The notes below the pieces were generated by a model. The model saw only the letters and a program-made list of their open reading frames with translations, was not told where the DNA came from and made no database searches. Shown one piece after another: positions 432 through 50,951 of a stretch of DNA of 64,000 nt (positions within the stretch are counted from its first letter, which is position 1; every line of letters begins with the position of its first letter). The translations under genes were made by a program, and so were the position numbers. The DNA is from Amoebidium appalachense (Eukaryota > Protista > Ichthyosporea). The DNA is taken from positions 7,173,408-7,237,407 of the forward strand of contig CAVNZM010000009.1 of assembly GCA_963693365.1 (NCBI GenBank), written 5' to 3'.

Positions 432-713
432 ACACCCAACCTCCTCCTCCTCCTCCCCCTCCCCCCTCCCTCCCCCCTCCTCGTACACGTACTCCTGGTC
501 CCCTCCGTCGTGCTCGTATTCGTCGTGTTCCCCCGTGCACGTCTCCCTCTCCTTGCAGGATGCCCACCAACATGCACACGGTGGCTGTGGTTTTGGTTGT
601 GTGGTGGTGGTGTTGCAGTACATGTCATAGAGGAAGGGGCACAAGTCTAGCAGCTTCTCAGGGTCTGTGGTGTCGGCCACCATACTTATCAGTGTGTCCT
701 CGTCCATTTTCAT
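432..713 (-). pseudogene. 5' part of VLTF3-like gene (left copy), interrupted by the Copia LTR
   Basis: MDEDTLISMVADTTDPEKLLDLCPFLYDMYC...EEEEE is nearly identical to the N-terminus of the gene at 45166. Homology stops at the LTR end (431). Confidence 0.85.
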
Positions 714-3700
714 TTTAATTTTTTACGTGTGTGTGTGTGTGTGTGTGTGTGTGTGGTCTACGGGTGTTGCAAAAAGTGAAGTGTTTGTGTACATGTGTGT
801 GCGCCTTTTATATGTTTTGGTGCCTGCTCTTTCTGGCAAGCCTCCCACCCTTGTATGCATGTACGGTGGTGGTGTTGGTGTTGTTTCTACCTGTGCCTGC
901 ATGTGGTGGTCTGCTGAACGACACGTTTGTGTTTGTGTTTGCATTAAGTCCTGATTTTAATGGCTGTTGCCCCTCGTGCACACGGTGCACATGGTGTATA
1001 CCTAAAAACACACTCTTTTTCTTTAAGTTCTTCTTCTGACCCCCCTGCCAGTGCACATCTCTGCGGAAACTTACCCCCCGTATCTGCAGTTAATCGTAGC
1101 GGTTTTTGGCTCATTTAGCCCCGATAATCTGCAGATTCTGGGCCGAAAGCCGATCCGCGATTATCCCATGGTTAGTAGGCAAAATTCGTGATTGGCTGGT
1201 TTCGATTTTTATCGGGGATTATCTTGGGGTTGCCGCCGCGGTGGCTCGCGGCGATCTCAGGTTATCGGAAGATGTAGAATCCAGCGGCAGGCAGCCTATC
1301 GGCAGATATTCGGAGCTCAAAAACGTGCGCTCGACCTCAAATTCCTTGAGATGAGTCATTGGAATTTGACTATCAGTGACGTAACACATACCATAGGCAC
1401 GATCGGGCACGCGTGCACGACTGCTAGGCGCAGGCGGGGCTGGGGCCAAAAAAAAAAAAAAAAAAAAAAAAAAAAAAGATCGGCCTTCAATTCACGTGCA
1501 CCGTGGAAACGTTTATTGATGCTTACCCCAGCGCAGCTGGTTTATATAATTATTCACGTTTTATTTTGTCTACTTTGTAATCATCACATCACCCTAATCT
1601 ATGTTGTTTGATCTCTGCAGGTACATGCTATTGCAGTGATCAGGACCAGCCTAATCTTTCGAACTTCTACACAAATATACACAATACCCCAATAACAAAC
1701 GTATCCTACAAACAAGTTACTGCTCGAACATGTTGTCAATCTAAAAGGCTGGCTGGCGAAACAAGTACCCAGCAGCACCGTTGACCCTGGCTGTGCCAAC
1801 TGTGCCTGTGGGGGTGTCCCAGCATAGTTTAGCAAATGCGAGCAAGAAATGCAGTAGGTGGGTGGTGTGACTGTCCACCCTGTGGGCTTAAGCACACAAA
1901 AGCACAACAAACACACGTACACATGTGCACTCAGTCATCTTTGCAAACACATCTGTGCATCACGTAACACAGAGAACGAAGCAAGGCAACCCACAAGTAT
2001 AGTGTCAAGACAACAACCACGTTCAATCTGTCCTGCTGCATGCAAGTATAAGGTCAAGACAACAATCACGTTCGATCTGTCCTGCATGCGAAACAATAAA
2101 TTTAGCACTTGCGGGCAAAACACGTGTGCCATAAGCCTGGGGCACGTGCACACAAATACACGTGTGCGTGCGTGCGTGCATGCGCGTGCGCATGTGTGTG
2201 TGTATCTATGTGTGTGTGTGTGTGTGTGTATGTGTATGTGTGTTTGCGTGTGTGTGTGTGTGTGTGTGTGTGTGTGTGTGTGTGTGTGTGTGTGTGTGTG
2301 TGTGTGTGTAGGTGTGTGTAGGTGTGTACTTGTGTTGCTGTGCTGTCCGTATTTTGTGTGTGTGTGTGAGAGAGTGGTGGTATTCCAACGAACTCACCTA
2401 TACATGTGCACTCAGTCTTCTTTGCAAACACGTGTGCACAACGCAACAGGAAACGAAGCAAGGCAAGCACAACACAAGTTAGTCAAAGAAAATGTAAAAA
2501 GTTAAACGCCCCTGTCCCGCAAGTAAAACAACAAAGGGAACACATGCAGACAAAAAACATGCTTCAGTAAACAGGCACACGAACACATGCACGGTGCGTG
2601 TGTGGGAGTGTGTGTGTGTGTGTGTGTGTGTGTGTGTGTGTGTGTGTGTGTGTGTGTGTGTGCGTGTGTATGTATGTGTGTTCGTGTGTGATGTGTGGGA
2701 GGGAGGGTGGGGTAGGTGGGCTGGATCGATAGGCAAGGCCGGGTGTGGCAAGTGTGAGTATGGCCGGCGTGTCTTTGTGTATGCCTGCACGTTTGCTTTT
2801 GTGTGTGCATCATGAAATTGCAAACATTGAAGGAAAGCAGAAGCCTTAAGCAACAGAGAAACTTCACTACCTGAACCAAACCGGTGGCAAGCAAAACCAG
2901 GAAACGTGTAATCAGAAAAACAAAATCAGAAAGAAAAAAAACCACCGAGGGAGGAAGGTGGCGGCGGAGGAGGGGGGGGGGGGGGGGGGGGGGAGGGGGG
3001 GGGGGGGGGGAGGACCTCAGGGCCGCCGTGCAAGCTGGCATGTTGATGGTGATTCCAACAGCATTCATGCCGTGCCTGCAAAGTGTATGTGAGCATTTTG
3101 TGTCGGTTGTCCGTGTGTCTGTCTGTCTGTCTGTGTCTGTGTCTGTGTCTGTGTGTGTGTGTGTGTGTGTGTGTGTGTGTGTGTGTGTGTGTGTGTGTGT
3201 GTGTGTGTGTGTGTGTGTGTGTGTGCATGTTTGTGTGTGCATCTCAAGTTGTATGCAGAATTGGTGACTACGTGGCAAAACAAATTGTTTTTTCGATCAT
3301 AACGAGAACACACACGTACACATGCACACACACCGTGCACACACACACACACACCCTTCAACCTCAACCCCCTCCCCCCCCCCCCCCACCCCCCCCCCCC
3401 CCCCCCCCCCCCACGCCCTTCCCCTCGACTTCAAGTTTTCGGAGTTTGAGTATGTTCAAGCAACCGTAAACACACAGATGTACAGGGGTGGTATGCATTC
3501 TTAAAAGCACACAGGCATGGGCACACAGGCACACAGGCACACATACAAGGTATAGGAATGCAAGGCCGGTTGTGGGATCAGTATGGGTGGCAAGCATATG
3601 TGTGCTTCACCGAGCATTTAAGCCCTCGAGCAGAAGAAGGAACACAACAAGAAGCAAGGCGGTAGCAAGCAAAAACACAAAAAAAAACTCGCAGGGAGAA

Positions 3701-48600: not shown

Positions 48601-50389
48601 GAATTCCACCGTTTTGGATCATGTTGTGAAGATTGACTGTTTTTCCAGGCTTTTGCTTTTCTCCCATGGCTTCGATTTGATGAAGTACACACAAAATTAG
48701 ACCTGCAGGCATACACACACACACCGGCCATACTCTTGCTTGTCACACCTACGTCCTTGCATATTATCGATGCTTACATGTGTACACCCCACACCTTCCT
48801 GCTCACTCACCCACCCTCGCAAACACACAACGCACGCACAACACACGTATACCGTTGCACTTCCGCACACAAACACAAGATCCGGACGACACACCTACAC
48901 ACACACACATGCACACACACACACACACACACACACACACACGGGCACGCACGCACACACGCACACACATACACAAGCACACGGGCACACACACGCACAC
49001 TACACACACGTGTGTGTGTGTTCGTGCGCCTGTTTGAAGAAGGATGTTTCCTGTCTGCATGTGTTCCCTTTGTTGTTTTACTTGCGGGACAGAGGGTGGT
49101 AAGTTTGATCGTTTTCTTTGATTGACTTCTGCTGTGCTTGCCTTGCTTCGTTTTGTGTTGTGTTGTGCACAAGGTTTGGCAGAGATGATTGAGTGCACAT
49201 GTGTACGTAGGTTCATCGGTATACCGCCACTCTTAACACACTATCACACACACACAATACGGACAACACACCACCACAAACCTACACACCTCACACACAC
49301 ACACACACACACACACACACACACACACACACACACACACACACACACACACACACACACACACACACACAAACACACACACGCACATACACATGTGGGT
49401 GCATGCATGCGCCCCTGACAATGACACACGTGTTTTGTCTGCATGTGTTGCGTTTATTGTTTTACATGCAGGACAGTGTGAACGTTAACGTTGTTTTGAA
49501 CGCTGTATTCGCGGCTTGCCTTGCTTCGTTCTCTGTGTTACGTTGTGCACACGTGCGTTTGCAAGATGGCTGATTCCACGTGTGTGTGTGGTTGTGCTTG
49601 TGCGTGATTAAGCCCACAAGGTGGACACACCAAACAGTTATTAAAGTCCTTGCTTCCACATGCTTATCTAACCTGGGACTCCCCACAGGCACCGCCAGCA
49701 AACCCTGCAGACTGACAACCCATACGAGCAGTACTCAAGTTTGTTTGTAGCACACGATAAGTTTCGTCGGTGTATATTTTGTGTATTGTGTAGAAGTTCA
49801 AAAGATTCAGGCTGGTCCAGATCATCAGCATGTACTGTAAGGTGAAACATCAGGAAGTGAGGATTAGAGCGGCTAGAATAAAACGTGAATAATGATATAT
49901 ACCAGCTGCGCTGGAGTAACCTACAATAAACGTATTTACCGTTCACGTGGTTCCGAAGGCCACCCTGTTCTTTTTTTTTTTTTTTTTTTTTTTTTGCCAC
50001 GGCCAGCAGGCCGGGCCAACTGCAGTGCGCACGTGCGCTTGCCTGGTGCGATCGTGCCCGTGGTATGTGCTACGTCATAGAGAGTCAAATTCCAATGACT
50101 CATCTCAAGGAATGTGAGGTCTTTTGAGCTGCGAAAATCTGCCGATAGGCTGCCTGCCGCTTTTTTCTATATCTTCCGATAACCTGAGATCATCGCGAGC
50201 CACCGCGGCGGCAACCGCAAGATAATCCCCGATAAAAATCGAAACCAGCCAATCACGAATATTGCCTACTAACCATGGGGTAATCGCGGATCGGCTTTCG
50301 GGCCAGAATCTGCAGATTATCCGACGGGGCTAAATGAGCCCAAAACCGCTACGATTATCTGCAGATTCGGGGGGTAGGATTCCGCAGAG
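45619..50389. mobile_element. TIR DNA element, copy 2 (4.77 kb, opposite orientation to copy 1)
   Basis: CTCTGCGGAAAACTACCCCCCGTACCCGCAG ... CTGCAGATTCGGGGGGTAGGATTCCGCAGAG. TSD ATG at 45616-45618 and 50390-50392. Collinear, diverged homology with 1059-6811 plus 25971-26514. Confidence 0.92.
48313..48555 (+). repeat. Dispersed ~240-bp repeat (second copy at ~60441-60672)
   Basis: Shared blocks CCCTGCTCGTCT..TGATCAAGACGGGTGACC, TCTGAGTTGG, GGTCGAAAC, GAGGATGGGCTC, TACTTCGTACT and CGCATTCAAA followed by poly-C. Confidence 0.75.
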
Positions 50390-50951
50390 ATGCAGGAGGG
50401 GGTGGTGGCAGCATTCAGGGGCGTGCAACACAGAGAGAGTGCAGACCAGGCAAGGAGGGTGTTGAGGCAGAACAAGCTCACACGGCACTACGTGCACGTA
50501 CCTTAGATCATGTTGAACAGGCTGTACGGGCACCCCCTCCCTAGGTTCACGTGCGAGCAGTTGGAGTTGCTGACGGGCATGTTTAAGTTTTCCTTGTCGT
50601 GGCACCGCCGGTACAAGGACGAGGCAAGGAAGAACTTTGTGGGGTACCCCTTCCTACTGGTGAAAATGGTAGGGTTAGTGAGTGGCATGGACGCAGAGGT
50701 GGTGGCCAGGCTGGTGCCTGCCGTCAAAAGCAAGGTGACTAGAGCAAAGTGTGACAGGGTGTGGGTGCAGCTGGAGAGGACCCTCAAGAACTACCACATG
50801 CTTACGGAATACAACATGTTTTGCTTGTAGCCTGGTGCTACTTGTACCTATAGACTTGGTGGACAAGACTTGTGCACAATACATTGGGGGTAGCAGGTGG
50901 CGGTAGGGGGTGTGCCAGCACGTACCCACACTACCATCGGCCCACTCCGGT

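Follow-up and report, generated by a model that had tools for sequence, protein, structure and literature searches.

The window analysed here is a stretch of 64,000 nucleotides from the genome of Amoebidium appalachense (assembly GCA_963693365.1, contig CAVNZM010000009.1), a protist of the Ichthyosporea. It contains two partial copies, in inverted orientation, of a viral element carrying genes for a protein-primed family B DNA polymerase (pPolB) and a homologue of viral late transcription factor 3 (VLTF3). Self-comparison of the window revealed two inverted matches, both far above chance level: 440-1058 against 45433-44819 (98.5% identity) and 26515-27376 against 44821-43950 (97.4%). The two matches abut in the right copy, while in the left copy a 25,456-bp insertion parts them. 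Taken together the copies are 99% identical, with 14 substitutions in 1,475 aligned bases (7 in one block of 853 and 7 in another of 622) and several indels. The inverted second copy proposed in an earlier reading, made from the sequence alone and hereafter called the sequence-only reading, is therefore present, as a partial copy.

A palindrome sits centrally in the pair, as might be expected of an assembly or read fold-back artefact, and none of the 32 contig pieces listed (of 3,873) from public sequencing runs spans the junction between the palindrome and the right pPolB. An artefact is nevertheless extremely unlikely, given the 14 substitutions and several indels that separate the copies and the fact that each copy holds insertions absent from the other, with clean target duplications.

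Polymerases of the pPolB type copy linear genomes from their terminal repeats by protein priming. The left pPolB gene lies on the minus strand, running from an ATG at 42767 to a stop at 26603, and comprises about 1,525 codons once an intervening copia element is removed. Its N-terminal and central part occupies 39223-42767; its C-terminal part, which contains the motifs K..NSLWGK and YMDTDS, lies together with the start of the spacer in 26515-27637. Pfam scans were run on 45 + 69 open reading frames (ORFs) of the window and covered 86 of 93 candidate ORFs, the seven left out being short ORFs at 50.5-54 kb. In these scans, PF03175 (DNA_pol_B_2) matches three separate minus-strand pieces between 40,439 and 26,649 (E values 8e-6, 6e-10 and 1e-6). 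Polinton-type pPolBs align gap-free over the copia junction, up to 39,223 and then from 27,635 at the same residue. After excision the gene still has five frame changes, four of them in the N-terminal and central part, and three in-frame stops (41,711, 40,913 and 40,440); above 41,530 the frames were assigned from open frames and from indels in other copies, not from homology. The pPolB of about 1500 codons in the sequence-only reading is thus correct in location and length but not as an open frame.

Neither an ExoI nor an ExoII motif was found in any of the three frames near 40,850 of the left pPolB. Both motifs are present in 81 of the 112 pPolB homologues longer than 1,000 aa. Residues 170 and 340 of the homologue P0006 correspond to window positions 40,961 and 40,721, so that 170 residues stand against 80 codons, and the ExoI and ExoII motifs of P0006 fall within this interval. 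Insertions of 2-8 bp relative to other copies were also observed across the two copies, at 39977, 40514, 41899, 42491, 42814, 44236, 44337, 44692 and 45508. Some of these resemble short inverted duplications, which we take to be similar to the excision traces of cut-and-paste transposons.

The right copy, on the plus strand, begins with a 5'-truncated C-terminal fragment of pPolB (43952-44733) that has small indels of its own. This is followed by a 432-bp spacer (44734-45165), with TATAAAA at 45065, and by the VLTF3 gene, which starts with an ATG at 45166. VLTF3 is split into a 5' half (45166-45618) and a 3' half (50390-50830) by a 4,771-bp element with terminal inverted repeats (TIRs). With X placed at the in-frame stop at 50504, the 3' half matches Pox_VLTF3 (PF04947) with 28.9 bits against a cut-off of 25; the 5' half alone has no Pfam match. 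The protein P0282, an intact 281-aa VLTF3 (PF04947, E 1.9e-13), aligns to both halves (E 3e-20 and 3e-32), with 57% identity over 61 aa of the 5' half and 43% over 127 aa of the 3' half. Judged by these alignments, P0282 is an orthologue of the window VLTF3. In the left copy, the VLTF3 side of the spacer with its TATA box (714-1058) and the 5' part of VLTF3 (432-713) are both on the minus strand, within the 98.5% inverted match. Here VLTF3 is broken at 431 by a copia-type long terminal repeat (LTR; 127-431) with 88% identity to the copia LTR of the left pPolB, and the remainder of the gene, if it survives, lies beyond the left edge of the window. The sequence-only reading had called a pPolB, a VLTF3 and a TATA-bearing spacer of about 430 bp; all three calls hold.

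P0282, which derives from a contig of the Logan set no longer than 17.8 kb, was the only close relative of the window VLTF3 found. The other two of the three matches of the representative search, P0283 and P0284, were discarded as repetitive proteins without a VLTF3 domain. VLTF3 was also matched in the two giant-virus bins behind loci L002 and L009, though on contigs other than those of the loci, and these matches were not used.

The insertions that disrupt both genes are of non-viral origin, and the claim that transposons hide the viral genes is supported. The copia LTR retrotransposon in the left pPolB (27638-39222, minus strand) has TG...CA ends, a 5-bp target duplication (GTACC) and gag, integrase and RVT_2 domains. 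Its two LTRs differ by one substitution in 928 aligned bases, against 7 in 853 and 7 in 622 between the viral copies; the copia element thus probably inserted after the copies had split. Nested in it are a tyrosine-recombinase fragment (33379-34254; PF00589, E 3e-5), a tandem array of three 350-bp units (31860-32903) and two pairs of short direct repeats (30208-30301 with 34461-34554, and 34372-34460 with 34930-35018). The insertion in the left spacer (1059-26514) has TIRs and a CAT target duplication, and the element in the right VLTF3 (45619-50389) has an ATG target duplication. These two TIR elements are related, non-coding and microsatellite-laden, share TIRs of the form CTCTGCGG... and 3-bp target duplications, and gave no transposase in the Pfam scan of window ORFs. 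The larger one hosts a giant long interspersed nuclear element (LINE) on the plus strand (7400-25970), with an endonuclease (9706-11571), a reverse transcriptase (20524-24063) and an RNase H (23849-24748). Between its endonuclease and reverse transcriptase lie about 9.5 kb of 216-bp tandem units arranged in higher-order blocks and open for up to 2,823 codons; a coding repeat of such size within a LINE looks unusual.

The element is multi-copy and variable. Each of four public runs (at most four samples from three studies, with three organism codes, one of them possibly the source of the window itself) covers all 30 bins, with many substitutions and indels, their depth not being a measure of copy number. 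Among the 24 of 203 loose ends listed, contigs of three of the four runs (X1, X8 and X9) continue over the copia junction, and contigs of two (X8 and X9) continue in VLTF3 without the TIR element. Contigs of X8 and X9 also extend upstream within pPolB past the truncation at 43952.

Both copies in the window are incomplete and neither is bounded at two ends, so that the compact unit of the sequence-only reading is not something observed. The first base of the right copy, at 43952, lies inside pPolB, and its far terminal repeat is not seen. Beyond the start of the left pPolB, a block at 42768-43936 is CCAAT-rich and contains a tandem duplication of about 390 bp (43111-43503 and 43505-43871) and an imperfect 74-bp palindrome (43859-43932); it is differently arranged in contigs of the public runs. 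This block is likely one end of the virus, where it would combine terminal and promoter functions. The palindrome also holds two TGACGTCA sites, presumably CRE/ATF-type motifs. Between it and the right copy lie about 15 nt (43937-43951) with no match elsewhere in the window. We propose that the inverted partial dimer formed during or after integration, when end-joining repair at the terminal palindrome linked a near-terminal left copy head to head with a broken right copy; such repair would account for the junction sequence.

The main alternative for the inverted arrangement, possible though not preferred, is a second virus copy nested in the pPolB of the first; it concerns the pair and not the identity of the element. 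The right copy breaks inside pPolB exactly at the likely terminus of the left copy, as a nested insertion might. Near-identical copies are moreover common in the runs (565 of 1,290 X1 contigs are at least 99% alike), and the 99% identity of the pair therefore needs no local duplication. The 15 or so unmatched nucleotides at the junction appear better suited to end-joining repair.

Searched against proteins of 574-2,000 aa, the C-terminal piece of pPolB returned 246 homologues, and the best 120, which are those listed, are 26-37% identical to it, none of them exceeding 37%. Named homologues among these 120 come from scale insect, fish, tardigrade, nematode and (via a cluster member) coral genomes, and one carries a metagenome-assembled 'Pseudomonadota' label. 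Searches of viral contigs gave no match to the window pPolB piece, the exact spacer pattern or the VLTF3 alignment. Metagenome contigs likewise gave none to P0282 or the VLTF3 alignment, and P0282 as a query returned only itself.

Sarre et al. 2024 (Sci Adv; PMC11244446) describe Amoebidium 'adintoviruses' that encode a major and a minor capsid protein and a Dam methylase alongside pPolB and VLTF3. Complete elements are about 30 kb long with terminal repeats, others are truncated and degenerating, and the reference genome holds 44, with four clades across isolates. That work covers both genes of the pair, the host and also the 5-azacytidine experiment suggested in the sequence-only reading. 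The host gene at 56879-59783 matches an Amoebidium protein with 100% identity, and the published pPolB-VLTF3 elements of the genus carry capsids and are in many cases truncated. For these reasons we propose that the inverted pair is very probably the decayed remnant of a capsid-encoding Amoebidium adintovirus-like virus of this published, roughly 30-kb kind. The viral, endogenised origin advanced in the sequence-only reading is supported, and the locus has predictably lost its function by now.

In the intact virus, protein-primed replication by pPolB would have started at the terminal repeats of the linear genome. VLTF3, for which Sarre et al. (PMC11244446) propose acquisition from a giant virus, is probably of such origin and would have acted in late gene expression. 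The integrated locus would then likely have been silenced by CG methylation, as was demonstrated for the published elements, 32% of whose genes were reactivated by 5-azacytidine (PMC11244446). Decay likely came next, and its traces are visible in the sequence: the copia element, the second LTR, the two TIR elements and the nested LINE inserted, and frameshifts, stops and loss of ExoI/ExoII followed.

Several points weigh against a decayed adintovirus-like virus. Pfam scans of the window ORFs found no capsid, A32 ATPase, Dam methylase or viral integrase. When 172 proteins taken from 12 viral loci were compared with the window by tblastn, pPolB alone matched. This comparison is insensitive, as its three rve integrases also missed the integrase of the copia insertion, which supplies the sole rve domain of the window. 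The statement of the sequence-only reading that no capsid, ATPase or integrase is visible is thus true of the window; because both copies are incomplete, this absence is uninformative on the intact element. The capsid proteins of the published elements, moreover, required HHpred for recognition (PMC11244446). No intact copy of the window's pPolB-VLTF3 family was retrieved in the protein, viral and metagenome contig searches. The probable tie to the published elements is drawn from their description, and those elements fall into four clades; the adjacency of pPolB and VLTF3 is an observation from the window. CpG depletion is not specific to the viral genes, with observed/expected ratios of 0.47-0.76 there, 0.51 in exon 1 of the host gene and 0.63 in the LINE.

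The phylogenetic evidence is also less than decisive. A quick tree of 50 rows places the window pPolB on a long branch outside any strongly supported clade. By path it is nearest to the Polinton-type sequences P0016, P0004, P0002 and P0019, a placement that appears to agree with the 'closest to adintovirus' of Sarre et al. and does not prove membership. It does not group with L015, an IMG/VR record of 19,988 bp found among 14 viral loci from the pPolB alignment. L015 has 101-bp TIRs and encodes pPolB, VLTF3 and an A32 ATPase, and this company of the two genes in a TIR-bounded viral record counts in favour of the preferred reading. Its polymerase, however, takes another position in the tree, and its VLTF3 shares 24% identity with P0282. 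No capsid was found in L015 by Pfam, BLAST or PDB search, and a candidate model was meaningless (pLDDT 31), which adds to the points against. The candidate ORFs of L015 lie at 12290-13153 and 13426-13791.

The sequence-only reading had favoured a compact capsid-less replicon. A genuine element of this kind (linear plasmid, satellite or non-autonomous derivative) would be copied and moved with the help of full adintoviruses or giant viruses. The family is multi-copy, the window has no capsid gene, and there is little unexplained room for further genes 3' of the right VLTF3. All that separates this gene from an unrelated reverse transcriptase fragment is a 143-aa ORF (50952-51383) and a non-coding, CCAAT-rich stretch of about 1.2 kb. 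No ATG ORF in the interval 50,830-52,600 is longer than 143-145 aa. The ORF is an open frame on the minus strand, convergent on VLTF3, low in complexity and rich in Pro, Thr and Lys; it has no Pfam match and no usable Atlas match, and is possibly the next viral gene. Against a capsid-less element stand the demonstrable 5' truncation of the right copy, the capsids of the published pPolB and VLTF3 elements of this host (PMC11244446) and the lack of a second terminal repeat closing a unit, a candidate at 51400-52600 having been rejected for want of a match to the terminal region at 42770-43960 (best E 0.13). No pPolB and VLTF3 element without a capsid appeared among the titles and abstracts listed by literature searches. 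Since the copies are incomplete and the published Amoebidium elements have capsids, a compact capsid-less element is improbable, and the counter-case that the sequence-only reading had itself named, a deleted remnant of a known capsid-bearing class, very probably applies. A capsid-less element, if real, would represent a new kind of satellite that couples Polinton-type replication to giant-virus transcription. The reverse transcriptase fragment itself (52636-53430, plus strand; PF00078, E 4e-16) is isolated and of the non-LTR type.

A more specific proposal is likewise unlikely: a multi-copy satellite or linear plasmid, separate from the 30-kb viruses and about 8 kb long, whose genes would be pPolB, VLTF3 and the small ORF, with neither capsid nor integrase. 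It would replicate by protein priming, use a late transcription factor of giant-virus type and enter the chromosome as an inverted dimer via a terminal palindrome. The linear plasmids of fungi and mitochondria that replicate by protein priming and lack a capsid carry a pPolB and terminal repeats with their own RNA polymerase, not VLTF3. The window element has pPolB in common with them, whereas a closed TIR-bounded unit is not seen.

It is also conceivable, given that VLTF3 is a giant-virus core gene and that giant-virus insertions are abundant in Amoebidium (PMC11244446), that the locus is a fragment of a Nucleocytoviricota insertion. Members of that phylum are recognised by an RNA-primed family B polymerase, D5, A32 and the capsid of nucleocytoplasmic large DNA viruses. 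The polymerase here is instead a protein-primed one (PF03175) whose relatives are Polinton-like, the Pfam scans of the window showed no further core gene of giant viruses, and the only close VLTF3 relative found is the short 281-aa form. A giant-virus fragment is thus highly unlikely. Under the preferred reading, a decayed adintovirus-like virus, the locus is one more degenerate copy of the family described in 2024, unusual VLTF3 included, and a tidy example of the decay of a viral insertion under nested transposons.

The host gene used above encodes a proline racemase-family protein in two exons on the plus strand. Exon 1 is identical in 112 of 112 aa, and exon 2 over 238 aa (100%), to EP00123_Amoebidium_parasiticum_P001618 of EukProt. 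The other 119 matches listed are bacterial-labelled or unnamed, at 62-68% identity, and the gene was possibly transferred from bacteria. A further multi-exon host gene on the plus strand (62525-64000) has a weak match to organic solute transporter alpha (PF03619, E 4e-4).

Among known systems, the defining traits of adintoviruses are an integrase of retroviral type, virion genes resembling those of adenoviruses, and animal hosts (Starrett et al. 2021, PMC8502044). The window element resembles adintoviruses and Maverick-Polintons (Polintoviricetes) in its pPolB, a polymerase of about 1,200-1,500 aa in which a Cys-rich region precedes the exonuclease, and its C-terminal part is up to 37% identical to theirs among the matches listed. 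It differs in its protist host, in having no retrovirus-like integrase or virion gene in its viral part, and in the presence of VLTF3. Because the host is not an animal, and incomplete copies allow no judgement on integrase and virion genes, we do not file the element under Adintoviridae in the strict sense. VLTF3 is not part of the normal gene set of Polinton-like viruses (PMC11244446). A VLTF homologue is listed in a figure legend for non-PolB MELD viruses (PMC8502044), and VLTF3 occurs in about 30% of the VC123/VC126 members of the Zephyr group of Polinton-like viruses, for which no endogenous members were found (bioRxiv 10.64898/2026.06.19.733378).

The closest counterparts are the elements of Sarre et al. 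(PMC11244446). The window shares with them the Amoebidium genome, the adintovirus- or Polinton-type polymerase, VLTF3 and a multi-copy habit, and many of the published copies are truncated as well. The complete published elements differ in having major and minor capsid proteins and Dam, none of which is in the window; they are about 30 kb long with terminal repeats, for which the window has one candidate region (42768-43936). An integrase is not named in the gene list given in the available text, nor is an inverted partial pair mentioned there. The pair is a feature of the window, and together with the palindromic end it may offer a clue to the way in which a virus for which no integrase is reported gets into a chromosome.

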